The notes under the pieces were generated by a model. The model saw nothing but the letters and a program-made list of their open reading frames with translations, had not been told where the DNA came from and ran no database searches. A stretch of 64,000 nt of DNA from Escherichia phage 121Q. The position numbers were made by a program, and so were the translations under genes. Where the stretch lies: sequence record NC_025447.1, one strand, 5' to 3'. Shown here piece by piece: positions 1 through 64,000 of the stretch. How positions within the stretch are numbered: position 1 is the stretch's first letter; the number at the start of each line of letters is the position of its first letter.

Positions 1-107
1 GAGGTTCAGATTTAAGAATGCTTCTCACCCTAGACACAGATTCCCAAGAGCGTTTTGTCAATGAGCACATTAGAGCACTTTTAATGGAAATTCAAAGTAA
101 ACTATGA
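1..107 (+). CDS. LGT-QE family small protein (5' partial, runs off window start)
   Basis: In-frame ORF to TGA at 105-107 overlapping next ATG; motif LTLDTDSQERFVNEHIRALL resembles the LGTxxQE core of downstream paralogs. Confidence 0.45.
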   Translation, partial: GSDLRMLLTLDTDSQERFVNEHIRALLMEIQSKL

Positions 108-319
108 AGGTAATATCAAACCAAGAGTACTTGGCACTATTCAGGAAGAATAATCACAAATATATGGCACTTGATTCAAGAACTGATATAAGTGAACTTG
201 AAAAAAATCTTTTGCGTTCAGAGATGATAGTACTGACACTCTTAGGAACACAGCATCAAGAAAGAACTGTTAATTCACACATAGAAATACTTAAGAAGCT
301 TATACAGGAAAAGTTATGA
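104..319 (+). CDS. LGT-QE family small protein
   Basis: 71 aa ORF; core LTLLGTQHQERTVNSHIEIL; ATGA coupling to both neighbours. Confidence 0.6.
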   Translation: MKVISNQEYLALFRKNNHKYMALDSRTDISELEKNLLRSEMIVLTLLGTQHQERTVNSHIEILKKLIQEKL

Positions 320-537
320 GAATCATAACACAACAAGATATTCTTAAGTTCACAAGGGTTCATGCATCTGAATTTGATGCTATATTATCAAAAAGTTACA
401 ACAACCCTTATACAGAAGATGTACACTACAATGAATTATGGGTGTATATACTTTTAGGTACAGATCATCAAGAGCAAGCCGTACAGAGGTATTTGAGTGC
501 TTTAAGTACTGCTACTGCTAATGGAGTATGTGTTTAA
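316..537 (+). CDS. LGT-QE family small protein
   Basis: 73 aa ORF; core YILLGTDHQEQAVQRYLSAL; start overlaps upstream stop. Confidence 0.6.
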   Translation: MRIITQQDILKFTRVHASEFDAILSKSYNNPYTEDVHYNELWVYILLGTDHQEQAVQRYLSALSTATANGVCV

Positions 538-781
538 TATGAAAGTACTATCTGAATTAGAAATGCATAATAGATTATACAAGTACTACCATTTACTTAA
601 ACCTATACAGAGGATTAAGTGTCCCTTTGAAGTGAAACAGGTTTTAATTTATGAGCATAAGTTCTTTGTATCATTAGGTACGAACCATCAAGAGTACTTT
701 TTGAAGTTGTACTTGATTACATTAATAGATTTAATTCACTATAAAACCAAACAAGCTAATAAAGAGAAATATGAAAACTAA
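521..781 (+). CDS. LGT-QE family small protein
   Basis: 86 aa ORF; core FVSLGTNHQEYFLKLY; alternative non-overlapping ATG at 539. Confidence 0.55.
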   Translation: MEYVFNMKVLSELEMHNRLYKYYHLLKPIQRIKCPFEVKQVLIYEHKFFVSLGTNHQEYFLKLYLITLIDLIHYKTKQANKEKYEN

Positions 782-1112
782 AATTCAACTCAGGGTATAC
801 ATATCGTATGAAAATATATACGTTAAAAGTAGTCTATGTAAAGATGTAATGGACTACAAAGGTAAACCATTCACAGTTACTTACAGTTTAACAGGAGGTT
901 TATATATCTCTTTTGCTAATTACGAAAATAATATGTACGAACACATTGACATTGAAGATTTAAGTACTTTATCACCAGAGGAATACTTTCAGGAATCATT
1001 AGTATGGGATTTAGAGTTTCCTATGCCATTAGTACATAAGATGATAGTACTAATGAAAGAATCTAAACAGGAGCCTAATGGTGATTATGAAGAACACATT
1101 ATTGAGTATTAA
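771..1112 (+). CDS. FQxS-core family protein
   Basis: 113 aa; C-terminal core SPEEYFQESLVWD shared with ~50 paralogs. Confidence 0.65.
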   Translation: MKTKIQLRVYISYENIYVKSSLCKDVMDYKGKPFTVTYSLTGGLYISFANYENNMYEHIDIEDLSTLSPEEYFQESLVWDLEFPMPLVHKMIVLMKESKQEPNGDYEEHIIEY

Positions 1113-1144
1113 GAGTTCTGATAGTACTGATAGTACAAATGTTC

Positions 1145-1173
1145 TTGACAGTACTTTTCATTACTGATATAGT
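1145..1173 (+). promoter_or_regulatory. sigma70-like promoter
   Basis: TTGACA, 17-nt spacer, TATAGT in intergenic gap upstream of 1203 ORF. Confidence 0.5.
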
Positions 1174-1202
1174 GCACCAACGTTAATCATAGGGTACAGA
1201 TT

Positions 1203-1448
1203 ATGTTAAAATTTTTAAATTTCCTTATCGTCTTGTGTATTGTTCTTGGAATTGCACCGTTTGTATTAGCGTATCTGGATTCAGATGAAATGCAGAAGAT
1301 GAATTGCACAAAGACAGGACAGAGTAGAGAAGAGACGGTTATGATGCCTGTAACGGTTATTGTGAATAACATACCAATTACGAACATGATTCCTACCCTA
1401 ACGACAACGTACCAGTACTCTTGTACAGATGGAGAGAGGTGGAGATGA
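1203..1448 (+). CDS. hypothetical small protein, hydrophobic N-terminus
   Basis: 81 aa ORF after promoter; N-terminal FLIVLCIVLGIAPFVLAYL looks like a TM helix; minus-strand ORF 1187-1387 judged a shadow. Confidence 0.4.
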   Translation: MLKFLNFLIVLCIVLGIAPFVLAYLDSDEMQKMNCTKTGQSREETVMMPVTVIVNNIPITNMIPTLTTTYQYSCTDGERWR

Positions 1449-1765
1449 AATTTAATATAGCAAAAACATCGAATGTATGTATATTTGGTTATGCAGATGA
1501 GTTAGGTGATATTGACATTCTTTTGTACAAAAAGGATGGTGTTATGCATTTCAAGTACCAGGATGAAGAGGCAGACAATTATCCTTTACCTAATTTAGTA
1601 CAAATGCAGGAAGAGGAATTATTCCAGTACAGCTTAGTATATGACATTGATATTTGCACGATGCCAGTACTAATTAATATTCAAAAAGTGATGCTCGATG
1701 TGTTTGATAGGCTAATACAAGGCACACAAGGAAGAACCATATATGTCAATGTACAAGACAATTAA
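1421..1765 (+). CDS. FQxS-core family protein
   Basis: core QEEELFQYSLVYD. Confidence 0.65.
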   Translation: MYRWREVEMKFNIAKTSNVCIFGYADELGDIDILLYKKDGVMHFKYQDEEADNYPLPNLVQMQEEELFQYSLVYDIDICTMPVLINIQKVMLDVFDRLIQGTQGRTIYVNVQDN

Positions 1766-1958
1766 TCAAGAATGGAAGACCCAAAAGTACAGGGAATTCA
1801 GTACTAGTTTAACAAAAGATGCATTGAATTTAAAAAGAACAGAGTTTGATATGTTTATTTTTCTTGGAACACGTTCACAGGAACAATACATTCATTATTA
1901 TATAAGTTCATTGCGAACGGAGATCGTATGCAAAACACAGGGTATTATAAAAAAGTAA
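1743..1958 (+). CDS. LGT-QE family small protein
   Basis: core FIFLGTRSQEQYIHYYISSL. Confidence 0.6.
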   Translation: MSMYKTINQEWKTQKYREFSTSLTKDALNLKRTEFDMFIFLGTRSQEQYIHYYISSLRTEIVCKTQGIIKK

Positions 1959-2194
1959 ACCAATATTTGTACGCTACAAAGTACAGGGATTTTTGTTTAA
2001 AGGGTGGTGATGAAGATTTTTCTTTGCGATTATCAGAATTTAATCTGTTATTTTATCTTGGTACATCGGAACAAGAAGAAATGGCACAGAAATTTATCAA
2101 GCACCTTGAACAAAAAATTCATATGCAAATTTTGATGCTTAAGGTACATAATGAGATAAACAAATATGAACCCAACAATAGTACAGGATCTTAA
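1928..2194 (+). CDS. LGT-QE family small protein
   Basis: core LFYLGTSEQEEMAQKFIKHL. Confidence 0.6.
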   Translation: MQNTGYYKKVNQYLYATKYRDFCLKGGDEDFSLRLSEFNLLFYLGTSEQEEMAQKFIKHLEQKIHMQILMLKVHNEINKYEPNNSTGS

Positions 2195-2552
2195 ACAAGT
2201 AATATTCCTTTTGAATACAAGAAGTGAATTGTATACAGAGTTAGAAGAGATTAATGCATTTTATCAGAATTTTGTAATTCAAGAGTTCAGTGATTTAATT
2301 ACAGATGCATTATTTGAATTCTCGGAGAAATACAAAGGAACAGAGTTCAGTGTTAAGAATGTTATTCGTCCAATTACAAGGAAAATTATATTATCACATT
2401 TTACATTTGACAATAAAGATTTATTCAGTCATAATCCAAGTACAGCTTTATATTTTATTCCTGATTCAGACAAAAATCATCCTATTCATTACGGATGGAT
2501 TTTGTCGTACATAGTACAAGGAAAGGAGTATCCTATTAAATGGAACGATTAG
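2166..2552 (+). CDS. hypothetical protein
   Basis: 128 aa ORF in gene-dense + strand array; no recognisable motif. Confidence 0.45.
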   Translation: MNPTIVQDLKQVIFLLNTRSELYTELEEINAFYQNFVIQEFSDLITDALFEFSEKYKGTEFSVKNVIRPITRKIILSHFTFDNKDLFSHNPSTALYFIPDSDKNHPIHYGWILSYIVQGKEYPIKWND

Positions 2553-2900
2553 GGCGATTAGATTATTACACAATTAATACAAATTATTTGTTGCGTAATA
2601 TAAAATCCGATTACAAAATATGGATAAAGAACAGAGATAGTATGTGTTATGAATTTTATTTAGATTATGCCATCAAACGCTTTTTAAGAGAAGAACATTA
2701 ATGCACACCACGCACACAGAGCACAAAAATACAAAAACGATAAATGTTTTAAATGATTCTTTATTGGTGAGTATAAATTTATATTATAAAATTCATTTAA
2801 ATGGTGGTATTGAAAATTTTAGTTATTATTTGAGTACAATATCGCAAGAGCATTTAATATACCAAGATCATTTATTGCACCCGAATCCATAAGGCAAATT

Positions 2901-3446
2901 ATGAATGATATAGAATTATTAGCACACAAGATTAGTACAATAATGCTTATCCTCAATAACAACCATCCTATATCGAAGATAGATGGAATCCTGAGTCAGA
3001 GGACAGGTGGTAGTTTATATTTGACATTAACAGAGGTTATCGCAAGGAATTACATTGATATTGAAATCGAGAACAGTGATGCATCAGGAAAGGTTGATGT
3101 AGGTGCATTAATCAGTTCAAATCCAGTATCAGCATCCCCATTGACCAAAGGTGTTAGTACAGGATTCGAAGGGTATTTGTGGTACAATACCAATGATGAT
3201 TATTTTATATATCAGCATTCCAATACAAATTATGATGAAGACAAATTTCAGTTCATAGACCCTTATGATGAAGCTGAAGTATTTCAAAAATCATTAATCA
3301 CAAAACCGCATGAGATGATGTATCTAATGTTATTCAGTACAATGCATTTGAATCCATTAATTAAAGGTTTAAAATTTTATATTCAATTGAATTTAGTCCA
3401 TGTAGTTTATGATTTATTAATGCAAGGATATAGTTATGAAGTATAA
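2901..3446 (+). CDS. FQxS-core family protein
   Basis: core DEAEVFQKSLITKP. Confidence 0.6.
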   Translation: MNDIELLAHKISTIMLILNNNHPISKIDGILSQRTGGSLYLTLTEVIARNYIDIEIENSDASGKVDVGALISSNPVSASPLTKGVSTGFEGYLWYNTNDDYFIYQHSNTNYDEDKFQFIDPYDEAEVFQKSLITKPHEMMYLMLFSTMHLNPLIKGLKFYIQLNLVHVVYDLLMQGYSYEV

Positions 3447-3753
3447 AATGCTTAATACAGTATCAGGGGTATATGTAGAATTAGAATCCGATTATTCAGA
3501 TGGATGGAATTTTATTAAACGACACGATAGAAATACATGGTACATGGCACATTTGGATAATGACGTAATAATAGATAATTTTGTCGATTTTAATACATTA
3601 TCAGAAGAAGAATTTTTCCAAATGCAATTTGTGCTTGATACAAATGGATTTGATTTGCTATTATTAAGGAATATTCAGAAAGCGGTTAATGAATTCATAA
3701 TCCAAAATAATTCAGGTAAAATGGGGATGTTCCATGATCTGGAAGTACAATGA
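3436..3753 (+). CDS. FQxS-core family protein
   Basis: core SEEEFFQMQFVLD. Confidence 0.6.
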   Translation: MKYKMLNTVSGVYVELESDYSDGWNFIKRHDRNTWYMAHLDNDVIIDNFVDFNTLSEEEFFQMQFVLDTNGFDLLLLRNIQKAVNEFIIQNNSGKMGMFHDLEVQ

Positions 3754-4291
3754 AATTCAGTACACCTACGCTAATGCAATCCTTATGGGACAAAAGTTAG
3801 CTTGTATTGTTGCAGCCTTATATAATGCCCAGAAATATCACAAGCGTCATTTCCACAAATGTATTGGTATTATTCCATCGAAGTACAATACATATATTGC
3901 GTGCACGAGTCATTTTGATAAACGATTCAATACACCTGATACCCCAAATGCCAGTAGTGTTATTGGTCTTTTGGATTTCGCACCTGGTGCTGTTATTGGA
4001 AAGAATGATTTAGAGTACACATGGTATAATAAAAATGCCCCGTTAGTAATGGTAAAATATGATACAGAAACGAATAAAACAATAGAGTACAATACATATA
4101 AATCAGAGGAAGAATTTTTCCAAGGTTCATTGCTTGTGCCAGTGCGTTTGTTGTTTTATAATGTCCTTATTAGTACAGTACACAATAGTCCATTACACAA
4201 GAATCACAAAATTAATTTCAATTTTTGTGCTTATGCGATTGATGGTGTGTATGAGTGTTTAATGGAGGTATTGAGTTATGAAGCTGAATAA
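3734..4291 (+). CDS. FQxS-core family protein
   Basis: core SEEEFFQGSLLVP. Confidence 0.6.
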   Translation: MIWKYNEIQYTYANAILMGQKLACIVAALYNAQKYHKRHFHKCIGIIPSKYNTYIACTSHFDKRFNTPDTPNASSVIGLLDFAPGAVIGKNDLEYTWYNKNAPLVMVKYDTETNKTIEYNTYKSEEEFFQGSLLVPVRLLFYNVLISTVHNSPLHKNHKINFNFCAYAIDGVYECLMEVLSYEAE

Positions 4292-4619
4292 TACATTTGA
4301 TATTAATAAGTTAAGAGAATGGTTTTATAGTATTGAAATTGAAGCCATCCCGTATCATAGATATGAACAATATAATTTAACCAGTATTGATATCAGTGAG
4401 TTGTACGCGTATTATCAAAGTGCATTAGAGATGCATAAGTTATTTTTGAGTACAGATTTTGTTCTAAATTACAATTTTGAGGAATTTAATAATTATAATT
4501 TAGTACAGAAATATGTAGTAGCAAAGTATATGTACCTTCAAGGAATTACAAGTAATTTGGAATTCAATACAGTCCTTGCTTTAGTTGAGGTAATTTTATG
4601 CAGTACATGTATGATTTAG
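4278..4619 (+). CDS. hypothetical protein
   Basis: 113 aa ORF, overlaps neighbours by a few nt; no family motif seen. Confidence 0.45.
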   Translation: MKLNNTFDINKLREWFYSIEIEAIPYHRYEQYNLTSIDISELYAYYQSALEMHKLFLSTDFVLNYNFEEFNNYNLVQKYVVAKYMYLQGITSNLEFNTVLALVEVILCSTCMI

Positions 4620-5104
4620 AGTTCAGCTTAGATGCTGCATTTAAATATGTTCACAAGATAGAAACAATATACAGTACATTATGTGCAATACAATCAGTAT
4701 CATCTGAGTTTGATGTTGGTGAAAAATATCAGGTATGGAATAATACATTTCTAAACAAAGAACGTTGCTCTACGGGGTTTAATATTTTAACATTTAATCC
4801 CAGCAATTGTTACCCAGAGAAGCATGAACGTTATCCGAATGACGACATGTGGTTTGATTACACAAAAGATGGTGATATGTCATCCCTTGTAGTTCCTGAT
4901 GATTTTAATGCCGAAGATTTAACGGAAGAGTGGTGGTTTCAACAGAATTTAGTACACGATGATATTGATTTATTTTTTTATGTAGTATTTAAAATGCTTT
5001 ACCACAACAATATATTAAAAGATAGTGTGTTTTTTTCATGTCTATATATTGATGATTTGTACAATGAAATCCAAATCAACATTCCCAGCACGCCTGTATC
5101 GTAA
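4598..5104 (+). CDS. FQxS-core family protein
   Basis: core TEEWWFQQNLVHDD. Confidence 0.6.
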   Translation: MQYMYDLEFSLDAAFKYVHKIETIYSTLCAIQSVSSEFDVGEKYQVWNNTFLNKERCSTGFNILTFNPSNCYPEKHERYPNDDMWFDYTKDGDMSSLVVPDDFNAEDLTEEWWFQQNLVHDDIDLFFYVVFKMLYHNNILKDSVFFSCLYIDDLYNEIQINIPSTPVS

Positions 5105-5129
5105 GATATGGGCTTTTTTCGTTTTGGTA

Positions 5130-5158
5130 TTGACAAAGAAGTGCAAAGCTGTTATCAT
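5130..5158 (+). promoter_or_regulatory. sigma70-like promoter
   Basis: TTGACA, 17 nt, TATCAT upstream of AAGGAG RBS. Confidence 0.5.
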
Positions 5159-5186
5159 GTGTAATCATTTTAAAGGAGAACATATA

Positions 5187-5687
5187 GTGAGTTTCATAAT
5201 CCCAAGTACATACGAAGATGCATCAAGTGCAGTTCATAAGATTCATTATATTTTTAATTTAATTATTAGATCTGCAAAAATTAAAATGTATGCACCTCTT
5301 GTGACAAATAATCGAAATGAAGAAATTTTTATTAGCACAGACAAAATTATTTTTCCATATTTCAATGAAGATAGATTGTGGTTCATACATTTAGCTGCAT
5401 TACAAAAATATAAGATGTCAATTCGTAATAATTTGGTTATACCGTTATATCATCCCGATATTGGAGAGGATGAGTATTTTCAGTACAGCACAGTACACCA
5501 CCATGAAGATATCTTTGCTGCTATGCTTATTGCTAAATTGAACACCGTTGATTTGGAGCAGTACAAATACAATAATAAATCATGTAAGATCATAATCCCT
5601 GCATTCATAGCTCTTTATGATTATGTGGTGCATAACAAAAAAGATGATACATATGCTTTCAATGAAGAGTATTTGAATTTTTTTTAA
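5187..5687 (+). CDS. FQxS-core family protein (GTG start)
   Basis: AAGGAG 8 nt upstream of in-frame GTG at 5187; core GEDEYFQYSTVHHH; ORF-track start at 5025 would run through the promoter. Confidence 0.55.
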   Translation: MSFIIPSTYEDASSAVHKIHYIFNLIIRSAKIKMYAPLVTNNRNEEIFISTDKIIFPYFNEDRLWFIHLAALQKYKMSIRNNLVIPLYHPDIGEDEYFQYSTVHHHEDIFAAMLIAKLNTVDLEQYKYNNKSCKIIIPAFIALYDYVVHNKKDDTYAFNEEYLNFF

Positions 5688-5696
5688 GGAGAACAT

Positions 5697-6224
5697 ATGA
5701 GCAGTGACGTGCAGAAATCAATGACATTCAATGAAATTGGTGCATTTAAAGATAAGATCATTGATTGTCTTGAATACATGATTTGTAGTAATATCGAAAG
5801 TATCGAGATATTTAACAAGACAAATCGCTCTTACCATATGATGTACATTGCAAACAATAATGGTATCATTCCATTTATTTCGGATAGTACAATATGGTAC
5901 GCATGTGATACGAAAAAAACCACAATAGGTTTACATTTATTTGAGACACATTATGATCTAATTATTCCTGAACATTGTATGCAAGAAGAAGAATATTTTC
6001 AAATGCAATGTATACATTCACCATTAGTGTTGTTTAGTTTATATATTATACCTTATATCACCAAATGTGTTCATGAGAATAAAGCTCCGTGGAATCATGA
6101 ATTTGTATCGTTGAAGTTATTGTATAATGTATTAGTAGAATATTATGATTACAGGCACAATGGTACAATCAGTGATGTATGGGATTTTGAATCGCTAAGG
6201 GTGAAAACATACACAGGTGAATGA
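5697..6224 (+). CDS. FQxS-core family protein
   Basis: AAGGAG RBS; core QEEEYFQMQCIHSP. Confidence 0.65.
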   Translation: MSSDVQKSMTFNEIGAFKDKIIDCLEYMICSNIESIEIFNKTNRSYHMMYIANNNGIIPFISDSTIWYACDTKKTTIGLHLFETHYDLIIPEHCMQEEEYFQMQCIHSPLVLFSLYIIPYITKCVHENKAPWNHEFVSLKLLYNVLVEYYDYRHNGTISDVWDFESLRVKTYTGE

Positions 6225-6840
6225 TATGACCAGAATTAAAATGTATGATTTGATGCAGTACAGTAAAATTGCCATTCCAGTGCTTAATAAAGTGCTGGAT
6301 GCATTCATTGCCAAATACCCTGAGAATTCAGTGTTATGTATTCCATTTAGTGTTCCAGATAAAGATGATATATTCCAAGTGAATGTCAGTACACGTGGTA
6401 TTACATTGCAGCAGAAATACATGGATACGGAATATTATGGAATAAAGTTGGATTCAGTACAGGGTTCAAAATCAGCCTATGATTTTTTTGTTCCTAATAA
6501 TATAGAGTCATGGGAAACAAACATTTCAAAGAAAGATGAAAATGATGTTCCTATTAGTGGTGTGTTCAACAATAAAGTTTTTTATTATTACGAAACCGAC
6601 AAATTCCCTGAAGAGTTATATTACAATTCAGAAATGAGTGAGGATATAGATGCATTCATGTTTCAATTATCTTTAGTACATGATATCATTGATGTTCAAG
6701 AGTTAAGAGCAGAAATCAATTTAGCTAAAGAGTTATCGGACATGCTGCCACCGTTTAGTATGCTTTTTTGTGAAGGAGGTTATTTTTCAAAAGAAGTGTT
6801 TGAACATTTCGTAGATGTTGTAAAAGGGTTGGATATATAG
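6217..6840 (+). CDS. FQxS-core family protein
   Basis: core DIDAFMFQLSLVHD. Confidence 0.6.
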   Translation: MNDMTRIKMYDLMQYSKIAIPVLNKVLDAFIAKYPENSVLCIPFSVPDKDDIFQVNVSTRGITLQQKYMDTEYYGIKLDSVQGSKSAYDFFVPNNIESWETNISKKDENDVPISGVFNNKVFYYYETDKFPEELYYNSEMSEDIDAFMFQLSLVHDIIDVQELRAEINLAKELSDMLPPFSMLFCEGGYFSKEVFEHFVDVVKGLDI

Positions 6841-6841
6841 T

Positions 6842-7036
6842 ATGCTTATAATTGATATTAAACAAAAATACCGTAAGTTTGATTGGTTCACCGATAGTTT
6901 CCAGCTTGAATTATTACATATGAATATCAGTGAAACATTATGTGCAGAAACACAAGATGAATTTGATGATAGAGTGATGAACATAGTAATGCTTTCTTGC
7001 TTTAAACATTTTGGTTATTTTTTCGGACAGAATTGA
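6842..7036 (+). CDS. hypothetical small protein
   Basis: 64 aa ORF tightly following upstream stop. Confidence 0.4.
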   Translation: MLIIDIKQKYRKFDWFTDSFQLELLHMNISETLCAETQDEFDDRVMNIVMLSCFKHFGYFFGQN

Positions 7037-7045
7037 GGTAAAAAA

Positions 7046-7561
7046 ATGCATCAACACAAGCATCATTCATATGATTTTGCAATTAACATTATGAAGTTCA
7101 TTCGAGCGTTGGAGGATGGGAAGCTTAGTCATAAGTACAGGAAAGAGGGTAACAATTGGTTCAGAAATGATTCCGAGTTCAGTTGTCATAAAATCGTGTA
7201 TAGTAATCAGTACAGTGCCAATTACCTACAAGATGTAGTGATGTGTTTTGAATACGTGTTGCAGTTCAGGGGTTCAATCCAAGATGAGTTGATGGAGAAC
7301 ATGTACATCCGATACCTTCCAATGCTCAAAGATGAAAATGTATTATTAAATTCAATATACCAACGAGTTCGTGAAATTGAGTGCAGGGATATATTAGATA
7401 CAGAAGAATCGTATTTCCAGCATTCCCTGATTTATTCACCTGATTTATTACAGGTACATAATTTGTTTAATACATTACGTCAGAACATCAGTACAGACAT
7501 ATTTTTGTCATTATCGGATTATGATACATTTGTCAAAGATTTAGAGGAAATAGGTTTATGA
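7046..7561 (+). CDS. FQxS-core family protein
   Basis: core TEESYFQHSLIYSP. Confidence 0.6.
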   Translation: MHQHKHHSYDFAINIMKFIRALEDGKLSHKYRKEGNNWFRNDSEFSCHKIVYSNQYSANYLQDVVMCFEYVLQFRGSIQDELMENMYIRYLPMLKDENVLLNSIYQRVREIECRDILDTEESYFQHSLIYSPDLLQVHNLFNTLRQNISTDIFLSLSDYDTFVKDLEEIGL

Positions 7562-7899
7562 GTCGATTTTCGGTTTGTGTGGTAAACATAAAAAGTGATG
7601 GTAGTTTAATTGAATTAGATGTATATGATGATGATAATGCATATGGTATTAAAGTACAGGACAATGATGTGCAGTTCAGTTCAAGAACAAATTTTGAAAA
7701 TCCAGTCCAAGTTCCTAATTTCATAGAAGATGAAGCAGCACGTTTCCAATACGAAACGGCATATGACAATGTACATATGCATATTATTATGCAACAAAGT
7801 TTAGTTCAATTAGTTCCTTTGTTCAGACAAAATATATATGTACATGAATTGTCGATCAATGACGTTCGCAGTTCCGTATTGTTCGATACAAATATGTAA
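7558..7899 (+). CDS. FQxS-core family protein (divergent)
   Basis: core DEAARFQYETAYD. Confidence 0.55.
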   Translation: MSRFSVCVVNIKSDGSLIELDVYDDDNAYGIKVQDNDVQFSSRTNFENPVQVPNFIEDEAARFQYETAYDNVHMHIIMQQSLVQLVPLFRQNIYVHELSINDVRSSVLFDTNM

Positions 7900-7909
7900 G
7901 GAAAGTACA

Positions 7910-8461
7910 ATGAGTTCAATGAGTTTATTAGATACATTAGAAAAAGACAGAAGTGCAATTAAGCGTTTAAAAGAGCAAGTACAAAAGATTGTATACAACG
8001 TTGATAAGTTTGAAGTCCCAGGAAGATTTGGTGATATTTCCCATACGGAGATCAAATCCCTTAAGTCAGATTTGTTGATTAAAAATAAAAATGGGTTGAT
8101 TTTAGTTTTGAGTTCAGATATGATGGGGGCAACACATAGTTATAATGCAGTATCGGTGCGTTCCGAGTGTGAAGGTATATATCTATCACAGGGTTTCAAT
8201 AGCGAGACACAGGTTTGTTTTTGTGATGCAGTACATGATCCTATGAAGTTCACGAGAAGTGAAGCCCAAGCGTTATTAGAGCTATCAGACGAGAGTTTGT
8301 TTCAGTACAGTACAATGTATGACAATGATAAGCTTCGTTGTATGTACGCTGTAAAGCATTATACACAGGAGTTTTCTGGATTTGCATACCTTTTAGTTAG
8401 AACCAATACCAGATATATTGATATGTTAGAAGATTACATCGATAAAGTTGTTAATGTATGA
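7910..8461 (+). CDS. FQxS-core family protein
   Basis: ATG at 7910 after AGGAAAG; core SDESLFQYSTMYD. Confidence 0.6.
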   Translation: MSSMSLLDTLEKDRSAIKRLKEQVQKIVYNVDKFEVPGRFGDISHTEIKSLKSDLLIKNKNGLILVLSSDMMGATHSYNAVSVRSECEGIYLSQGFNSETQVCFCDAVHDPMKFTRSEAQALLELSDESLFQYSTMYDNDKLRCMYAVKHYTQEFSGFAYLLVRTNTRYIDMLEDYIDKVVNV

Positions 8462-8615
8462 TTTTGTGATGGGATGATGCTAATGAAAGAGTTATTTGAA
8501 GATCAGTTCAATACATATGTGGATAATATTCTTTATTCCAGTCGTGCCAGTCAACGAGGAAATCGTGCTTACAATATTGATTACCTATTGGTGGTGCTGA
8601 GTTCACAGTACACCA

Positions 8616-8846
8616 ATGCGGTACAAAGGGTTTATTATGAAAAGTGCAAGTAATAGTGATATTGCAAAGGAGAAGTTTAAGTGCAGTTTAGATTACGGTT
8701 TAAATGATTTTCTTACATGCACAATGTACAGGAATGATGATTATGAGCAATCCGTAATTTCGTTGCACAGATATTTCGAAATAATTTACGCAAGATATCT
8801 TAGAAGGTTAGAGGGAATAGGGGATTGGAATTATGATTACGTTTGA
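8616..8846 (+). CDS. hypothetical small protein
   Basis: 76 aa ORF; start uncertain (alternative ATG at 8637). Confidence 0.4.
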   Translation: MRYKGFIMKSASNSDIAKEKFKCSLDYGLNDFLTCTMYRNDDYEQSVISLHRYFEIIYARYLRRLEGIGDWNYDYV

Positions 8847-9069
8847 AGAACCAGAAACAATGAGTCCATATACGATGAAAGGTTTTGAATTCATGATGGA
8901 TTCGATTTTGAAGAATTCGTGTTTAGTACACAATCCTGAGCGTGCAACAGTGAGGGAATATCAGGACAATGCATTACAGCGTGTAATGAATATGTACAGG
9001 AATACGAGTCGCAAGCTTTGTGCGTTGAAAAGGATTGAAGAAATCAAGGTTTCTAGGCTGAATAAATAG
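8833..9069 (+). CDS. hypothetical small protein
   Basis: 78 aa ORF overlapping upstream gene end. Confidence 0.4.
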   Translation: MITFEEPETMSPYTMKGFEFMMDSILKNSCLVHNPERATVREYQDNALQRVMNMYRNTSRKLCALKRIEEIKVSRLNK

Positions 9070-9268
9070 AGACGTTTCATTTTGACAGGCCGCAGGGGGG
9101 GTCAAAAAAATTTCCGCTGAAAAACATGCTAAGGTATATGTTTAATATAAAGTTTTATATTGTGTTTTTCAGAGTACAGTTCATGTTTCCTGAAACAAAA
9201 AAAATACCCCGCCACCGAACGTGCTCTTTATATTGGAGTTTACCTTATTAATTATAGTAGAGATTAAG

Positions 9269-9646
9269 ATGGAAATAAAATATAATGAATTTTGTGCAAG
9301 GACATGGATGTACACTGGTGAGTTAGTTACGCACTCTAACTTATACAAGGGTGATTTAAACTACGCCAGGGACAAGATTTTAAAGTACTGGAATGCTGAC
9401 TTTTATTTGATGGATTTTAGTACTGGGTTTAGGGGTAAAGCAACCGAGATGTTGGACTATACAGTACTTGATGATGCTGCACTGTTTCAGGAGGCATTAG
9501 TATTTGATAAGAAGTACATCTGTACATTAGAAGAGATGATTGAATTACAGCGTAGAATTAAATGTATTCACAGGGAATGTATAGATATCTGGTGCAGTAC
9601 TGGTGAAGATAATTTTTGTAATCATTTCAATCTAGGGGAAGTGTGA
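9269..9646 (+). CDS. FQxS-core family protein
   Basis: ATG at 9269 (ORF-track start 9221 is GTG with no RBS); core DDAALFQEALVFDKKYICT nearly identical to 10235 and 10588 genes. Confidence 0.55.
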   Translation: MEIKYNEFCARTWMYTGELVTHSNLYKGDLNYARDKILKYWNADFYLMDFSTGFRGKATEMLDYTVLDDAALFQEALVFDKKYICTLEEMIELQRRIKCIHRECIDIWCSTGEDNFCNHFNLGEV

Positions 9647-33984: not shown

Positions 33985-34506
33985 ATGTCGAAGAAGGATG
34001 CTTCGAAAAAACATTCAGTACATTTCAGTACTGGAAAAGATAACTGGACAACTCCCAAAGATTTCTTTGAAGATTTGGATGAGTTATGGGGATTTACACT
34101 TGATGCTGCTTGTGTAGATGAGACTGCATTGTGTGATAATTTTTTCACTCCAGAAGATGATTCACTATCACAGGATTGGGGAAATAATATAGTTTGGTTG
34201 AATCCACCATACAGTGACTTGAAAACTTGGTTATCTAAAGCAGTAGATGCATATAATAACGGGGCAACTGTAGTTATTCTTGTACCCTCAAGAACCGACA
34301 CAATTGCTTTTCAGGATTATGCTGCTAAAATATGTGATTGTATTTGTTTTATTAAGGGAAGATTACGATTTGGTATACCAGAAGAACCCGATAAGAAAAC
34401 AGATTCAGCACCATTTCCTTCGTGTCTGATAGTACTGGATAAGTACTTAACCACTGCTAAAATCAATTATCTTAAATCTCTTGGGTTGGTGATGAAGAAT
34501 TTATGA
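33985..34506 (+). CDS. DNA N6-adenine methyltransferase (phage Dam-like family)
   Basis: WTTPKDFFEDLDELWGFTLDAAC and catalytic NPPYS motif (WLNPPYSD) typical of phage N6-adenine MTases. Confidence 0.8.
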   Translation: MSKKDASKKHSVHFSTGKDNWTTPKDFFEDLDELWGFTLDAACVDETALCDNFFTPEDDSLSQDWGNNIVWLNPPYSDLKTWLSKAVDAYNNGATVVILVPSRTDTIAFQDYAAKICDCICFIKGRLRFGIPEEPDKKTDSAPFPSCLIVLDKYLTTAKINYLKSLGLVMKNL

Positions 34507-41536: not shown

Positions 41537-41800
41537 ATGAATATCCAAGATAGATTACAATTACTGTACACTATTGAACAGGCTGCTTTTGAACTTGTTC
41601 GAAAAATATCAGATGAACTACCTAAAGGAACTAAAGTTCGTGTACGTGAGATGAATTATTTTTCTGGAGTAATTGAAGAACAAGTACTAACAGTGAATAA
41701 AGTAACATACTATGAATCTGAGTTGTCTATTCAGTGTGAATCGGATGATGGATTAATATCATATTATGGAACTGATGTAGATATAGAGGTAATAAAATGA
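41537..41800 (+). CDS. KYxG-V family small protein
   Basis: ATG at 41537; ELPKGTKVRVRE motif. Confidence 0.45.
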   Translation: MNIQDRLQLLYTIEQAAFELVRKISDELPKGTKVRVREMNYFSGVIEEQVLTVNKVTYYESELSIQCESDDGLISYYGTDVDIEVIK

Positions 41801-42939
41801 CCCTTTTACAAATATATGAAGATTTAATGCACTTATGTAATACAAACGATGCGTTTTTTTATGTGGATCATAAAAGTCCTGCTGGTGGTACGTATCGTGT
41901 ATTCAGTTATCGTCTAGCATCATACACTGATTTCATGCAACCAAATGCGTTGGAAACCCGTGGCTCTATGTGGGAAATTGATGAAGAAGGTGACATGATA
42001 CGTTGTGCAGCACGTACAATGAAAAAGTTCTTCAATGCTTACGAGAATCCTGCTACAATGTTCCCTGCTAACACCACATGCGATGACATTGCGGTAGTTA
42101 TGCCTAAGTTGGATGGTTCGATCATCAGTACTTATCGTGATAATGATGGTGAGATTCGTTGTAAATCACATACTGCATTGTATTCTGACCATGCGATTAA
42201 CAGTACTCGACTTATTAACGAGAACCAGAATTTGTATCAGTACATCGACGAAGCGGAACGTTTAGGTTACACAGTTAATATGGAGTATACAAGCCCAGAG
42301 TACCGAATTGTATTACCATATCAGGTAGAACAACTGTTTGTACTGAACGTTCGACATCGTGTGAGTGGTGAGTTGCTATGTGGTAAAGCACTACGTGATA
42401 AGTTTCCATGCCTTGCACAGTACAGTACTAATATGACCGGAAAAGATATTCATCACACTTTTCCGGTACGAAATACCTTCCGTGAAAGCGTGGAGGAAGT
42501 TCATAAAATGCTTGATATTGAGGGTTTTGTGTGCATCCTAAATAATGGGACAATGTGTAAAATAAAGACTGACTGGTACAGTTCATTACATCTTACAAAA
42601 GATAGTATTATTATTGATTCTCATTTATATGAAGCCGTATTAAATGGTTCAAGTGATGATTTAAAACAATTGTTCAGTACTGATGAATATGCTATGCAAA
42701 AGATATTAAGAATGGAACAATTGGTATTTTCGTGCTATAATGCATTACAAGATGAAGTAGAAAGCTTCGTCAAGGAACACAAGCACTTGGAGCGAAAGGA
42801 ATTCGCAATGAAGGTTCAGGAGTGTTTAACTAATGAACTGAATCGTCAGGGCTTGGCCTTTGCAATGTATAACAATAAGAAAGTTGATTACAAAGAGACT
42901 CTTATAAAATACATGAAAATTGTACTAAAGGATTTTTAG
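41797..42939 (+). CDS. rnlA: RNA ligase 1 (T4 Rnl1-type tRNA repair ligase)
   Basis: N-terminal FFY.D....GGTYRVFSY..ASY, ALE.RG, KFFN..ENP and nucleotidyltransferase KxDGS motif (PKLDGS), all as in T4 Rnl1. Confidence 0.85.
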   Translation: MTLLQIYEDLMHLCNTNDAFFYVDHKSPAGGTYRVFSYRLASYTDFMQPNALETRGSMWEIDEEGDMIRCAARTMKKFFNAYENPATMFPANTTCDDIAVVMPKLDGSIISTYRDNDGEIRCKSHTALYSDHAINSTRLINENQNLYQYIDEAERLGYTVNMEYTSPEYRIVLPYQVEQLFVLNVRHRVSGELLCGKALRDKFPCLAQYSTNMTGKDIHHTFPVRNTFRESVEEVHKMLDIEGFVCILNNGTMCKIKTDWYSSLHLTKDSIIIDSHLYEAVLNGSSDDLKQLFSTDEYAMQKILRMEQLVFSCYNALQDEVESFVKEHKHLERKEFAMKVQECLTNELNRQGLAFAMYNNKKVDYKETLIKYMKIVLKDF

Positions 42940-51267: not shown

Positions 51268-52686
51268 ATGAGCATTTTAGCAATTCTTGAAAGCATTAAA
51301 AATACTAGCAGTACTCTGGGCAAAAAGGCTATTCTTGAACAAAATAAAGATAATGTAACTTTGCAAAAAGTTCTGAAATATACACTCGATCCTAGTATTG
51401 TAAGTGGGTATAAAAAGCTACCAGACGCTGATAACGTGTATCAACATATGACATTGGATGAAGCTATTGATAAACTAGAATGCATCTATAAGCGTGCATT
51501 GACGGGACATACAGGGCGTGATTTCATTGCTTCAGTACTAGGTAGTGTGAGTCCAGATGATGCTGAAGTTCTTCGTAAGATGCTTACAAAGAACTTAGAT
51601 TGTGGTATTCAAGAAAAGAACTGCAATGATGTATTTGGTAAAGGATTTATTAAAGATGAACCATATATGCGTTGTTCTTTGCTTGATAAAAAGACTGTTA
51701 AGAACATCAACTTCAAAGGTCATGGTTATGCTGTCTCCGAGGTCAAGATGGATGGTCAGTACTTAAACCATGTAGTCATTAATGGTGCTCTTACCTCTTC
51801 CTCCCGTAATGGTAAACTATATGACTTCTTAGGTTGTCGTGATGGTGAGATGGCAGGTCTTGCACATCAAATTCAAATGAATGATGAACGTTTTAGTAGT
51901 GGTGTCGTCTTTATGGGTGAAGGTCTAGTACTTGATAATGACGGTGAAACTATTCTTCCACGAACAACTGGTAATGGTATCATTCAGAAGGCTGGTAAAG
52001 ATAGTATTAGTCAGAATGAAGCAATGCGTACTGTATTTGTACTATGGGATGTTGTTCCGTATGATGCATTCTGTGAAGGTACATGGAATGTAAAACGTAA
52101 AGAACGTCGCGAACTTCTTGAATCTGCCATCAATGTATTGGGTAGTGATTTTGTACGTATGGTGAAATACCGTAAGGTTCAAAACATTAAAGAAGCATTT
52201 GAGTACAATAACGAACTCATGGATCAGGGTGAAGAAGGATCAGTACTGAAATGTGAAGATGGTATCTGGAAATCACATACATCTCCTAAGCAGTTGAAAG
52301 TAAAACTAAAAATGCAATTGGATTTGCGTATTGTTGGTTTCAACGAAGGTGAAGGTAAGCGTAAAGGTTCACTTGGTTCTTTACAACTTGAAAGTGCATG
52401 TGGCACACTGAAGGTAAATGTAGGAACAGGTATCCGTGAAAAAGATGCAGAGTGGACATTCAAAACCATTTGGGAACGAATGCAAGAACTAATTGGTAAA
52501 GTCGTTACCGTTGAGTGCAATGAGATTGTAATCGACAAGCGTACAGGTGAACCATCACTATTTTTACCAGTGTTTATTGAATTTAGATTTGACAAAAACA
52601 CTTGTGACGATTATACTCGTATCTTAGAAATTCGTGATAGTGCTGTTGAGGTGTTCTCTAACAGTATTATTGAAGCACTTAGCTAA
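51268..52686 (+). CDS. ATP-dependent DNA ligase (T4 gp30-like)
   Basis: N-terminus ILAILESIKNTSSTLGKKAILEQNKDN parallels T4 ligase; adenylation KxDG motif EVKMDGQ. Confidence 0.85.
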   Translation: MSILAILESIKNTSSTLGKKAILEQNKDNVTLQKVLKYTLDPSIVSGYKKLPDADNVYQHMTLDEAIDKLECIYKRALTGHTGRDFIASVLGSVSPDDAEVLRKMLTKNLDCGIQEKNCNDVFGKGFIKDEPYMRCSLLDKKTVKNINFKGHGYAVSEVKMDGQYLNHVVINGALTSSSRNGKLYDFLGCRDGEMAGLAHQIQMNDERFSSGVVFMGEGLVLDNDGETILPRTTGNGIIQKAGKDSISQNEAMRTVFVLWDVVPYDAFCEGTWNVKRKERRELLESAINVLGSDFVRMVKYRKVQNIKEAFEYNNELMDQGEEGSVLKCEDGIWKSHTSPKQLKVKLKMQLDLRIVGFNEGEGKRKGSLGSLQLESACGTLKVNVGTGIREKDAEWTFKTIWERMQELIGKVVTVECNEIVIDKRTGEPSLFLPVFIEFRFDKNTCDDYTRILEIRDSAVEVFSNSIIEALS

Positions 52687-55856: not shown

Positions 55857-55884
55857 AGGAATCCAGTACTGGATTCCTCTTTTT
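55857..55884 (+). terminator. rho-independent terminator
   Basis: Perfect 22-bp palindrome AGGAATCCAGTACTGGATTCCT followed by CTTTTT. Confidence 0.65.
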
Positions 55885-57731: not shown

Positions 57732-57732
57732 G

Positions 57733-59028: not shown

Positions 59029-59098
59029 AAATAATTAAAATAACAGGATGATTATGATGTACTTCCTTTGTTATTAATTATATTGAGATTATATAACT

Positions 59099-59952: not shown

Positions 59953-59970
59953 AATTATAAGAGAGAATAG

Positions 59971-60165: not shown

Positions 60166-60174
60166 GGATCGAAT

Positions 60175-61475: not shown

Positions 61476-61484
61476 GAGTTTAAC

Positions 61485-61805
61485 ATGTCTTACGCAATGT
61501 TTTTGGATGATATTCGTGATGCAAATCTATATTATCCAAACCAAGATATGGTGGTATGTCGTGACTTTAAAAGTGCATGTGAATATGTTATTGAAAATGG
61601 AATTCCAGCATTTGTATCATTCGACCATGACTTGGGTGATGTGAGCGAAGACGAAAAGACTGGATATTCTTTTGCTAAGTTTCTTATTGATTATATGTTT
61701 GATAATAATATTAAAGAACCGTTTGAGTACTTTGTTCACAGTAGTAATCCTGTTGGTAAAATTAATATTGAAACATACTTAAACAATGGATTTAACGCAT
61801 TATGA
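61485..61805 (+). CDS. hypothetical protein with acidic FLDDIRD / SFDHDLGD motifs
   Basis: 106 aa; GGAG RBS; motif spacing reminiscent of receiver-like domains, unverified. Confidence 0.45.
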   Translation: MSYAMFLDDIRDANLYYPNQDMVVCRDFKSACEYVIENGIPAFVSFDHDLGDVSEDEKTGYSFAKFLIDYMFDNNIKEPFEYFVHSSNPVGKINIETYLNNGFNAL

Positions 61806-62104
61806 TTCAAACACACATCAAAAGTCTTATTTGTACTGTTCTGTTAGGTGCAGGAGTTCTTTGGTTCGGACAGTATCACGAGAACACTAAGCGTACCAAC
61901 ATTCACTACAATACCGCAGAAGTTGTTAGTTTAGGACAATGTAGCGAGTCCAAATGTTCATTCATGTATAAAACCCAAAGTGGTGAAGTACGTAATGGAC
62001 TATCAAGAGAACCAGTTTCAATTGGTCAACTTGTTTACCAGGAGTGCTGGGAAGAAAAGGTTCGAGGTTCACGTTGCTATGTTGAATACGAACCAAATAT
62101 GTAA
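61802..62104 (+). CDS. hypothetical protein with N-terminal TM segment
   Basis: 100 aa; hydrophobic LICTVLLGAGVLWF. Confidence 0.45.
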   Translation: MIQTHIKSLICTVLLGAGVLWFGQYHENTKRTNIHYNTAEVVSLGQCSESKCSFMYKTQSGEVRNGLSREPVSIGQLVYQECWEEKVRGSRCYVEYEPNM

Positions 62105-62164
62105 TAATCCGAGTCAATAACATTAGTCGAGTACAAGGATGTACTCATAACTCAAGGATGTTTT

Positions 62165-63604
62165 ATGAAAAAATATACAATTGACACAAACGTACTACTA
62201 TCTGACCCTAATGCATCTATTGCTTTTGATGGTGCTGCAATCATTCTACCATTTACAGTACTGGAAGAATTAGATTCGATTAAGAGTCGTAATGTAGATG
62301 TTTCACGCGATGCTCGTGTTGCTATTCGTAACATTGAAGCAATTATTGCAGATGCATCACATGACGAGATTAGTAGTACTGGTGTTAATATTGCTGATGT
62401 TCATACCAATATGAATCCTGATAGCAAATTGTTTGTTATTACAAACGAAGAAGCTGAGGCACTAATTCGTACTAAAGGTACAGAAGAGAAAGTTCAAACC
62501 CTTCTCAAAAGTACTGTACCTGATGATAAAATCATTCTGGTAGCTTTAGCAACAGAATCAGTACTGGTAACTCGTGATATCAACATGCGTATCAAAGCAC
62601 TAAGTTATGGTGTCGAGGTACAAGATTATCGCCATGATATTGTTATTGGTGATAGTGATTTGATTCACATTGGTCAACACCATCTGGAAATCAATTTTTG
62701 GGAAGTATACAGCAACTTAACCAATACTAATATTCAATCCGAACAAGTTGGTCGTCGTTTGTATCATTACATTTCTAAAAGCTTGATTGAACATCTGCTT
62801 CCACAAAATCTATGCATCGGTGATTATCTATATGATGATGCTGACGTATTATTTGTGTACGAAGGACAATCAGCAATTGAGGAAGATGATGGAACACTAA
62901 CACCAGAAGATATTTTGGTATTCCAAGACATTGGACAATCAGTGTCTTTACGTGCTAAAGTATGGGATATTAAAGCAAAGAATATCCAACAAGCACTCGC
63001 CATCAACAGTATTCTCGATCCTGATGTACATCTAACAGTACTGCTAGGTTCTGCTGGTACTGGTAAAACACTAATTACAATTGCTACTGCATTAGAATTA
63101 GTACTGGAAAAACGTAAATACGACCGAATCATCTTCTCTAAAACTCAAGACTCACAGTTTGAAGATATTGGTTTCTTGCCAGGTTCAGAAGCAGAAAAAG
63201 TGATTCCATTCTGTGGAGCCGCGATTGATGCGTTAGAGTTTCTTCATAAAGATGATGCCAATCCACAAGGTAGTATTGAAGAGATTATGAAACGTAATGT
63301 TATTCAATTTAAAGCACTAAACTTTGTACGTGGACGTTCATTCACCAACACTATTCTAGTAGTTGATGAATTCCAAAACATTACACCTGCACAAGCAAAA
63401 ACCATCTTGACACGAGCAGGGTTAAACTGTAAAGTAGTAATTATGGGTAACTTGAGTCAGATTGACAGTAAGTTTATTAGTCCTGTTAACAGTGGTTTGA
63501 CATATGTAACTGAGAAGTTTAAAGACTGGGCAGGTTGTCGTGTCATCGAACTAGAAGGTGTTGTTCGTTCACCACTGGCTGAATTTGCTGAAGAAAATAT
63601 GTAA
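62165..63604 (+). CDS. phoH: PhoH-like ATPase with N-terminal PIN domain
   Basis: PIN-like YTIDTNVLLSDPNA; Walker A LGSAGTGKT; Walker B VVDEFQN. Confidence 0.8.
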   Translation: MKKYTIDTNVLLSDPNASIAFDGAAIILPFTVLEELDSIKSRNVDVSRDARVAIRNIEAIIADASHDEISSTGVNIADVHTNMNPDSKLFVITNEEAEALIRTKGTEEKVQTLLKSTVPDDKIILVALATESVLVTRDINMRIKALSYGVEVQDYRHDIVIGDSDLIHIGQHHLEINFWEVYSNLTNTNIQSEQVGRRLYHYISKSLIEHLLPQNLCIGDYLYDDADVLFVYEGQSAIEEDDGTLTPEDILVFQDIGQSVSLRAKVWDIKAKNIQQALAINSILDPDVHLTVLLGSAGTGKTLITIATALELVLEKRKYDRIIFSKTQDSQFEDIGFLPGSEAEKVIPFCGAAIDALEFLHKDDANPQGSIEEIMKRNVIQFKALNFVRGRSFTNTILVVDEFQNITPAQAKTILTRAGLNCKVVIMGNLSQIDSKFISPVNSGLTYVTEKFKDWAGCRVIELEGVVRSPLAEFAEENM

Positions 63605-63605
63605 T

Positions 63606-63628
63606 ATTGTATGGGACATAATGTCCCA
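63606..63628. promoter_or_regulatory. 23-bp near-perfect palindrome (terminator hairpin or operator)
   Basis: GTATGGGACAT-a-ATGTCCCATAC just after phoH stop, followed by TGATATAAT -10-like element. Confidence 0.4.
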
Positions 63629-63672
63629 TACATGATATAATGTTGTTATCATAATACAGAAGGAGATATAAA

Positions 63673-63861
63673 ATGGCTAAACAACCTAAGAAACAAGAAC
63701 CAGTAGCAAAAGTTAAGAAAGAGAAAGTTATTCAATCCAAAGAACAACGTATGTACGAACAACGTAAGAGTGAAACCCTATCCGGTCTACAAGCTCTACG
63801 CAAGCAAGGTGTACTAACTCGTGCACAGTACCGTGAACTAGTAGCTCAGAAAGGTTTTTGA
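63673..63861 (+). CDS. small basic protein
   Basis: 62 aa, K/R/Q-rich; AGGAGA RBS 8 nt upstream. Confidence 0.55.
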   Translation: MAKQPKKQEPVAKVKKEKVIQSKEQRMYEQRKSETLSGLQALRKQGVLTRAQYRELVAQKGF

Positions 63862-63965
63862 TTCATTTGAAGCAATATTGTGGAGTTCTTAATAAATACT
63901 TTTATAAGAATAATAATACTTTTTATTAAATTAAAAAGAACTCCATGTGTTATTTCAGTTTTTCG

Positions 63966-63991
63966 TCCCTGTCTTTTGGCAGGGATTTTTT
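63966..63991 (+). terminator. rho-independent terminator
   Basis: TCCCTG-tcttttgg-CAGGGA hairpin followed by TTTTTT. Confidence 0.6.
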
Positions 63992-64000
63992 ATATCTATA

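Follow-up and report, generated by a model that had tools for sequence, protein, structure and literature searches.

Why does a jumbo phage lineage that otherwise removes palindromes from its DNA keep one of them, AGTACT, at about three copies per kilobase? The question is raised by a 64,000-nt stretch of Escherichia phage 121Q (NC_025447.1), hereafter the window, to the whole of which all positions refer unless another genome is named. The window has a GC (guanine plus cytosine) content of 32.7%, and ~131 of its 134 called genes lie on the + strand. It is 99.6% identical to vB_EcoM_G17 across 12 kb, and Sharanji, phAPEC6, PBECO4 and slurp01 are close relatives, all of them members of Asteriusvirus, a genus of jumbo myoviruses with ~350-kb genomes. 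Whole-genome comparisons were made with OR844650.1, a 98% identical Asteriusvirus relative of 352 kb assembled from eight sequence pieces, and the comparison across the clade covered 23 loci and four genomes. We find that AGTACT is a highly iterated palindrome, present at ~2.6-3 sites per kb, and that it is a dyad-symmetric signal in double-stranded DNA under selection.

With 193 copies in 64 kb (3.0 per kb), AGTACT is the top-ranked hexamer of the window. Dinucleotide-preserving shuffles give 15.7 ± 3.5 copies with a maximum of 23, an order-1 Markov simulation gives 16.8, and whole-codon shuffling inside genes gives 23.1. When every protein and the codon usage of each gene are held fixed in a synonymous-codon shuffle, 45.4 copies are expected, which is an observed-to-expected ratio (O/E) of 3.9 (z = 23), and none of 200 such shuffles exceeded 61. 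A first-pass annotation of this DNA had claimed strong over-representation in all codon frames and had named the count against codon-shuffled or Markov expectations beforehand; both parts of the claim hold, with 193 copies against 16-45 across the dinucleotide, codon and synonymous shuffles, a ratio not near 1 even with proteins and codon usage fixed, codon phases of 76/42/58 and another 17 sites in non-coding DNA. Longer words built on the same core are in excess as well, CAGTACTG being found 41 times where 0.8 are expected (21% of AGTACT sites) and TCAGTACTGA 8 times where 0.1 are expected. The whole genome behaves likewise: OR844650.1 carries 919 copies against 101 expected (2.6 per kb; O/E 9.1), with 12-67 in every full 10-kb bin and a higher density in early than in late regions, and AGTACT is its sole strongly enriched 6-bp palindrome, the runner-up reaching 1.56. 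Here there is one CAGTACTG in every 1.6-1.7 kb and one AGTACT in every 0.33-0.38 kb.

That the pressure acts on the DNA and not on a peptide had also been proposed, and several observations agree with it. In OR844650.1, Ser-Thr dipeptides are written AGT-ACT in 379 of 711 cases (53%), where codon usage predicts 111, and a Tyr codon standing between AG and T is TAC in 80% of cases, as against 27% elsewhere. The flanks of AGTACT are mirror-symmetric to ±4, giving the extended consensus TTCAGTACTGAA: C at -1 / G at +1 is found in 44-47% of sites, G at -1 is disfavoured, and the DNA is T-rich at -3/-4 and A-rich at +3/+4; the least common flank combination, GAGTACTC, occurs at 4 of 919 sites in OR844650.1. 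The mirror symmetry persists in the window despite one-strand coding, and sites in untranscribed promoter-upstream DNA and in terminal non-coding DNA further bear out a DNA-level pressure.

Individual sites are also conserved. In a comparison with TH47, which is 82% identical, 72% of AGTACT sites are intact versus 40% of all hexamers (P = 1e-7). Three sites of the window lie in one gene:
41797-42939, + strand: RNA ligase gene, with AGTACT at 42127, 42202 and 42676, each on a Ser-Thr codon pair.
Of 10 orthologues with ~58% amino-acid identity, 7, 8 and 5, respectively, have AGTACT at the aligned position. In bulk, no enrichment is seen for the half-sites AGTACC, AGTACG, GGTACT and CGTACT (O/E 0.9-1.3), so function resides in the complete palindrome, and no half-site strand skew was found outside the stretch 1806-9383 described below. 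A manyfold palindrome excess, in-gene sites in all frames and conservation above background are thus all present, as in the highly iterated palindrome HIP1. OR844650.1 encodes a tRNA-Ser whose anticodon, ACU, exactly matches the codon AGU, so the codon bias more probably results from AGTACT than gives rise to it. A34 is unusual in bacterial tRNA anticodons, AGT is the commonest Ser codon (34%) as well as the first half of an in-frame AGTACT, and the Sharanji annotation includes a tRNA adenosine deaminase.

Neither the spread of the motif through a whole clade nor the island at 1806-9383 had figured in the first-pass annotation. AGTACT enrichment is present in RaK2-, GAP32-, CBB- and fENko-Kae01-like genomes and absent from more distant relatives. 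When loci are ordered by RNA ligase identity, all 12 with at least 57% are enriched and none of the 11 with 42% or less, other contigs of 310-330 kb included. The 12 enriched loci, which are contigs of 345-378 kb plus two short fragments, hold 56-93 AGTACT per 21 kb (35 in one 11-kb locus) against ~6 expected, and AGTACT ranks first among their over-represented hexamers or, in one locus, second behind the overlapping CAGTAC. The Klebsiella phage fENko-Kae01, which shares ~29% average nucleotide identity with Asteriusvirus, has 204 copies in a 50-kb locus where 14.5 are expected. In 50 kb sampled from the E. coli K-12 chromosome there are 0.22 AGTACT per kb and no CAGTACTG, the phage density being 12-27 fold higher. 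The trait is clade-wide and independent of the host. AGTACT is unmentioned in the genome papers of RaK2, CBB, phAPEC6, Sharanji, fEgEco12 and G17, and a full-text literature search for AGTACT with 'jumbo phage' returned no match.

This abundance stands out against the fate of other palindromes. In OR844650.1, 23 of the 64 six-base palindromes have zero copies, among them CCATGG (48 expected), TGGCCA (44), GCATGC (40), CTGCAG (36) and GGTACC (33), and the tetramer GCGC is absent both there (180 expected) and in the window (23 expected). The window lacks 26 of the 64, with a summed expectation of 78, in keeping with the earlier remark that phages usually deplete palindromes. Despite a twofold enrichment of GTAC itself, GGTACC and CGTACG do not occur. 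The lineage purges palindromes rigorously, and AGTACT is the one exception. It does not behave as a target of ScaI-type restriction-modification, the site being ninefold enriched in DNA from which 23-26 other palindromes are missing. Several palindromes with a CpG at their centre (AACGTT, CACGTG, ACGCGT, TACGTA and ATCGAT) are spared from the purge, which would fit protection by CpG methylation, a modification reported for RaK2 DNA from bisulfite sequencing (PMC3622015).

A further property concerns where the sites lie. A direct terminal repeat of 20,993 bp has been confirmed experimentally in fEgEco12 (PMC13070987). In the homologous zone of Asteriusvirus, AGTACT reaches 6 per kb (11.5 per kb in non-coding DNA and 4.7 per kb in genes) and lies within sigma70-type early promoters in two fixed registers. 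In the first, the last T of AGTACT is shared with the -35 hexamer, AGTAC being followed directly by TTGCAA or TTGACA; in the second, AGTACT abuts the -10 hexamer, as in AGTACTnTATAAT / AGTACTGTATAAT. Both are often found together, 20-22 bp apart. A 50-kb locus of fENko-Kae01 contains 10 and 11 exact matches to the two registers, where ~0.1 are expected, and 9 and 8 of these lie on the + strand inside the terminal repeat. A fixed promoter register, as an operator would have, is therefore common to the terminal repeats of Asteriusvirus and fENko-Kae01. Both also carry an array of 11-14 AGTACT at the non-coding left genome end.

In the repeat (301-322.6 kb in OR844650.1) each small early gene is headed by a strong sigma70-type promoter of its own, after which comes a conserved G/C-rich hairpin in the 5' untranslated region, e.g. 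GGGGAGAATAGTTCTCCCC. The proteins encoded there include a DksA/TraR-type zinc finger and a protein with a ParE-like toxin domain; the best conserved, of 155 aa, is 79% identical to its fENko-Kae01 counterpart and matched no known fold or family.

The first-pass annotation had extended the enrichment over positions 1-64000, and in this respect it does not stand, as the distribution is non-uniform:
1806-9383, + strand: AGTACT-free island (P = 5.5e-12 for the lack of AGTACT), with 62 GTAC and 41 AGTAC, all 41 of which are AGTACA.
No GTACT is found on its + strand (0 vs ~5 expected, P ~0.005), and the non-palindromic [CGT]GTACT is absent as well (0 vs 9.9 expected, P = 5e-5). Inside genes of the island AGTACA occurs 39 times, where a synonymous shuffle predicts 13.1 and a codon shuffle 4.9; this 3-fold to 8-fold enrichment equals the strength of AGTACT elsewhere. 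The sites occupy three frames (15/12/10), matching amino-acid contexts, and sit in 41 distinct 14-mers, and are thus mutually independent, yet their orientation is 41:0. These results show that within the island full sites and one orientation of the 5-mer are excluded, and that a one-sided variant is positively selected.

The island is conserved in OR844650.1, TH47 and fEgEco12, and no AGTACA/AGTACT exchanges are seen at orthologous positions within it. An assembly artefact was rejected, as an independent Illumina assembly contains the same island, and so do relatives (TH47, fEgEco12) that are 75-82% identical; an explanation as one transcription unit was rejected too, because an internal pair of terminator-like and promoter-like elements interrupts it. 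It lies ~8 kb past the inner edge of the terminal repeat. Right at this edge, outside the window, a second stretch, 5.5 kb long, is free of AGTACT; it has ~10 TGTACT and no AGTAC on the + strand. Most of these TGTACT stand at the same offset in tandem paralogous 70-aa genes, so the 'opposite polarity' of this second stretch is weak evidence. In fEgEco12 a tight array of ~28 tiny genes (~70 aa) is found at 21.0-27.3 kb, just upstream of window position 1, and begins exactly at the inner boundary of the 20,993-bp repeat; several of the genes carry GCTGTACTG at a common offset of ~130 nt, and the stretch has neither AGTACT nor coding-strand AGTAC.

fENko-Kae01 has a miniature of both AGTACT-free stretches. 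No such island adjoins the other terminal-repeat boundary, and the third-position skews of the two stretches do not mirror each other. The idea of two islands of opposite polarity flanking an origin or terminus is weakened by these two findings, by the paralogous TGTACT positions and by CBB, which is without islands. The rest of the window (9384-64000) has AGTACA and TGTACT in a ratio of 68:35 (P = 0.0015); codon shuffling predicts a bias of similar size (30-59 vs 21-27), so this excess probably reflects coding-strand usage and not polarity. The island is also the part of the window that diverges most between strains (92-95% identity over 1700-9600 versus 99.6% at 20-32 kb in G17), and parts of it have extra paralogous matches elsewhere in Asteriusvirus genomes.

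Between the two AGTACT-free stretches the density is high:
1-1805, no strand assigned: dense stretch with 13 AGTACT (7.2 per kb), lying between the genome's two AGTACT-free islands and continuing upstream of the window.
1145-1173, + strand: sigma70-like promoter match TTGACA-17-TATAGT with TG, by consensus match only; the AGTACT at 1150-1155 overlaps the end of its -35 hexamer.
The homologue of this dense stretch, hereafter the centre, is found at 293.7-296.1 kb in OR844650.1 and at 26.5-29.0 kb in fEgEco12.

Taking into consideration (i) the 12-bp dyad symmetry, which reaches past the core as expected of a dimeric binding site, (ii) the promoter registers, (iii) the terminal array and (iv) the spread of about one site per 400 bp, a dimeric binding protein fits best. 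We tentatively propose, with a probability of roughly 0.4, that AGTACT is the binding site of a putative clade-specific, phage-encoded dimeric DNA-binding protein. A footprint beyond 6 bp is typical of such a protein and not of a 6-bp restriction or modification enzyme. The putative homodimer would recognise AGTACT / TTCAGTACTGAA, and binding every ~400 bp would mark or coat the phage DNA, with the highest density at the non-coding left end of the genome. It would also act as an operator-binder on the sigma70-type early promoters within the terminal repeat, from sites over the -35 and against the -10 hexamers, about two helical turns apart. Self-recognition would lie in the sequence instead of in modified bases, and in the AGTACA island full sites would not be tolerated, a one-sided and uniformly oriented variant being selected. 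A nucleoid or packaging-protein binding motif had been one of three functions offered by the first-pass annotation; it is the one that the flanks and promoter registers suit best, which is a fit and not a demonstration.

Several points weigh against this proposal. No reader protein and no DNA-binding family was found in Pfam, PHROGs, NCBIfam and PDB screens of the proteins of the island and centre, the methyltransferase neighbours and the conserved repeat proteins; the last of these yielded the DksA/TraR zinc finger and the ParE-like domain, the rest being unmatched. Outside the terminal-repeat promoters the sites show no helical phasing and no regular or paired spacing. The promoter registers could partly be opportunistic overlap, since the final T is shared with TTGACA. 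A dimeric reader also leaves unexplained why the island holds AGTACA at full strength in a single orientation, and CBB has no AGTACT-free island, so that the island may be something distinct. The fEgEco12 supplement contains winged-helix candidates, and these are weak.

Phage proteins of comparable reach are known. SPO1 TF1 and phi29 p6 are abundant, bind genome-wide with a preference for the ends or the early promoters of the terminal repeats, and repress early transcription, a binding geography that resembles the geography of AGTACT. TF1, however, reads hydroxymethyluracil-containing DNA and p6 a pattern of bendability; neither uses a discrete enriched hexamer, and no homologue was found here. 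On the host side, the E. coli SlmA site GTGAGTACTCAC is a 12-bp palindrome built around AGTACT, to which a dimer of the TetR family binds at scattered places in the chromosome (PMC3020112). SlmA needs G1, T2 and a purine at position 3, whereas the phage sites prefer C and avoid G beside the core, and decoy sites for SlmA were rejected because none of the 919 sites in OR844650.1 fits GT[AG]AG[CT][AG]CT[CT]AC.

A different kind of reader would be a tracking enzyme (helicase-nuclease, translocase or packaging motor) that AGTACT controls so as to spare phage DNA, the palindrome working two ways and the AGTACA island one way. We consider this unlikely. It would account for the 12-27 fold density contrast with the host sample, for the peak density in the terminal repeat and at the DNA end, and for the 41:0 orientation in the island, which is relevant only to a directional reader; genes for a RecD-like helicase and a Cas4-like nuclease have been reported. 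The phage already uses motif-based nuclease control, as the true E. coli Chi GCTGGTGG occurs 28 times in OR844650.1 against 2.5 expected (~11-fold), clustered in the terminal repeat. Chi being separately enriched, RecBCD is therefore handled by a word other than AGTACT. Chi, the FtsK-orienting polar sequences (KOPS) and the DNA uptake sequences (DUS/USS) are like AGTACT in being short, ~tenfold enriched words, found ~1 per kb genome-wide, that serve as self-identifiers for DNA-processing machines. These words are, however, asymmetric and strand-skewed genome-wide, whereas AGTACT is palindromic, its bulk half-sites are unenriched, and its skew is confined to one island that CBB lacks, while the paralogous positions of the second-stretch sites leave little evidence for an opposite polarity. 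In T7 the EcoP15I sites all lie in one orientation and the word is not enriched. The 41:0 island resembles this case in that an asymmetric word is uniformly oriented across a long stretch; unlike the T7 word, AGTACA is itself 3-8 fold enriched and replaces the palindrome.

Chi shows patterns of its own. The window contains three copies against 0.3 expected, at 41881 (+), 49806 (+) and 33241 (-); nine copies in the same orientation lie inside the terminal repeat (302-322 kb in OR844650.1), and in Asteriusvirus as well as in fENko-Kae01 an inverted pair, CCACCAGC..GCTGGTGG, stands ~0.5 kb from the left end of the genome.

Slightly less probable again is an epigenetic mark, in which AGTACT would be the target of a phage methyltransferase, its fully methylated, hemimethylated or unmethylated state would time early promoters, packaging or self-recognition, and AGTACA would be permanently marked on one strand. 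The only DNA methyltransferase of the window is:
33985-34506, + strand: Dam-family N6-adenine DNA methyltransferase (PF05869), followed by a nucleotidyltransferase-like gene.
Synteny of the pair extends to fENko-Kae01, and CBB too has the methyltransferase. The whole of a 286-aa C5 DNA methyltransferase of fEgEco12 (279943-280803) is covered by an alignment to the mammalian DNMT3A/B catalytic domain (E = 1e-23), a better match than bacterial M.HhaI or M.HaeIII; this alignment implies a short target-recognition domain, as judged by homology, and the predicted DNMT3 likeness is consistent with the CpG methylation of RaK2. The palindrome is of the restriction-modification type, these phages encode two or three DNA methyltransferases, sites overlap -35 and -10 elements as at Dam-regulated promoters, AGTACA could be methylated on a single strand only, and the terminal array is reminiscent of the P1 pac site, which contains a GATC cluster. 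Yet the methyltransferases examined are only of the Dam family and DNMT3-like, and AGTACT contains neither GATC nor CpG. Because the two enzymes of the clade look Dam- and CpG-type, methylation of AGTACT is unlikely; the Dam-family enzyme of the window is probably not its reader, and neither that enzyme, the DNMT3-like one nor the activity behind the CpG-methylated RaK2 DNA can be assigned to it. The modification site offered by the first-pass annotation is disfavoured on the same ground. Moreover, the flank preferences reach past 6 bp, and tenfold enrichment is not normal for the target of an orphan methyltransferase. fEgEco12 DNA was cut as predicted by 10 enzymes, ScaI and RsaI not being among them (PMC13070987).

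A signal at the level of RNA is improbable. Under it, AGUACU would be selected in transcripts (e.g. for self-complementary pairing or cleavage), the DNA palindrome would be a by-product and the mRNAs of the island would be exempt. The window genes all on one strand, the avoidance of GUACU specifically in the sense strand of the island, AGTACT at hairpin apices and the higher density in early than in late regions would suit this view. It is weakened by sites that lie over -35 hexamers, upstream of them and in the non-coding array of the genome end, and by flanks that are mirror-symmetric despite one-strand coding; strand counts as such cannot separate a self-complementary RNA word from a DNA palindrome.

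Mutational drive, in which biased mismatch repair of the very-short-patch type or another directed process makes AGTACT from near-sites and the site has no function, is very improbable. It is the standard proposal for the nearest analogue, HIP1, and would explain an enrichment that is genome-wide and independent of frame. However, one-mismatch neighbours are undepleted against codon shuffling (AGTATT O/E 1.07, AATACT 0.95), and on this basis the very-short-patch-repair origin was rejected. Sites are in addition kept above background, the promoter registers are conserved between genera, and a 7.6-kb island holds a different word at equal strength; a Vsr-like gene was not noticed, though no systematic search for one was made. 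An artefact of composition, codon usage or amino-acid content has a negligible chance of explaining the excess, for although AGT and ACT are the preferred Ser and Thr codons and an order-3 Markov model already predicts 74 copies, the synonymous and codon shuffles reject it and non-coding DNA is enriched too (outgroup loci are unenriched, but with a GC of 37-55% against 30-37% they are not composition-matched controls).

Among described phenomena the closest is cyanobacterial HIP1, GCGATCGC, an octamer palindrome found at ~1 per 1.1 kb in Synechocystis, maintained by selection and of unsettled function (PMC6604393). Like AGTACT it is a short perfect palindrome in manyfold excess within coding regions and maintained by selection. 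It differs in embedding CGATCG/GATC, which known methyltransferases modify, whereas AGTACT matches neither methyltransferase type of the phages; and HIP1 belongs to cellular genomes, whereas AGTACT is found in a phage clade that otherwise eliminates palindromes. New here are an iterated palindrome in a virus clade, its promoter-embedded copies and an island of an asymmetric variant; we know of no HIP1 counterpart of the promoter registers, the terminal array or the island.

Phage genera with hosts in Escherichia, Klebsiella, Cronobacter, Pectobacterium, Yersinia and probably further ones retain this single palindrome at ~900 copies. Its retention amid palindrome loss implies a conserved reader with a large fitness effect, one that outweighs exposure to ScaI-type restriction and is even accompanied by a dedicated tRNA-Ser(ACU). 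T4 and SPO1 carry hypermodified bases. A bolder and rather doubtful extension of the binding-protein proposal is that AGTACT is a sequence-encoded identity tag, playing in the unmodified jumbo genomes the part that such bases play in T4 or SPO1: a dedicated phage reader would gauge the density of the tag, shield or organise the chromosome, shut the early promoters of the terminal repeat and spare phage DNA in host takeover, and the AGTACA island would be a directional dialect for a tracking machine. If true, this would be a new class of viral discrimination between self and non-self, by an iterated palindrome. Identification of the reader would illuminate how jumbo phages that have no nucleus and no modified DNA organise, regulate or protect 350-kb chromosomes. 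It would also provide a tractable system in which to work out what iterated palindromes such as HIP1 do, a long-standing puzzle. AGTACT itself is a simple sequence marker of the clade in metagenomes, and it constrains the recoding of these phages.

Other features of the window bear on single statements of the first-pass annotation. The identifiable genes are those for a Dam-family methyltransferase, RNA ligase, DNA ligase, Clp protease, Sir2 and PIN-PhoH, and three further elements carry AGTACT:
51268-52686, + strand: DNA ligase gene, with 5 AGTACT sites.
62165-63604, + strand: PIN-PhoH gene, with 6 AGTACT sites.
55857-55878, + strand: terminator-like 22-bp perfect palindrome AGGAATCCAGTACTGGATTCCT, with AGTACT at its apex and a T-run after it.
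The counts given earlier for the two genes were roughly right, but the exact values were off (PhoH has 6 and not 8, DNA ligase 5 and not 4); the site in the terminator loop was placed correctly.

Two other word biases were observed in the window. Words resembling T4 late promoters are depleted, TAAATA occurring 15 times against 39 expected and TATTTA 14 times against 52, and GATC is depleted as well (94 vs 219 expected), although a Dam-family gene is present.

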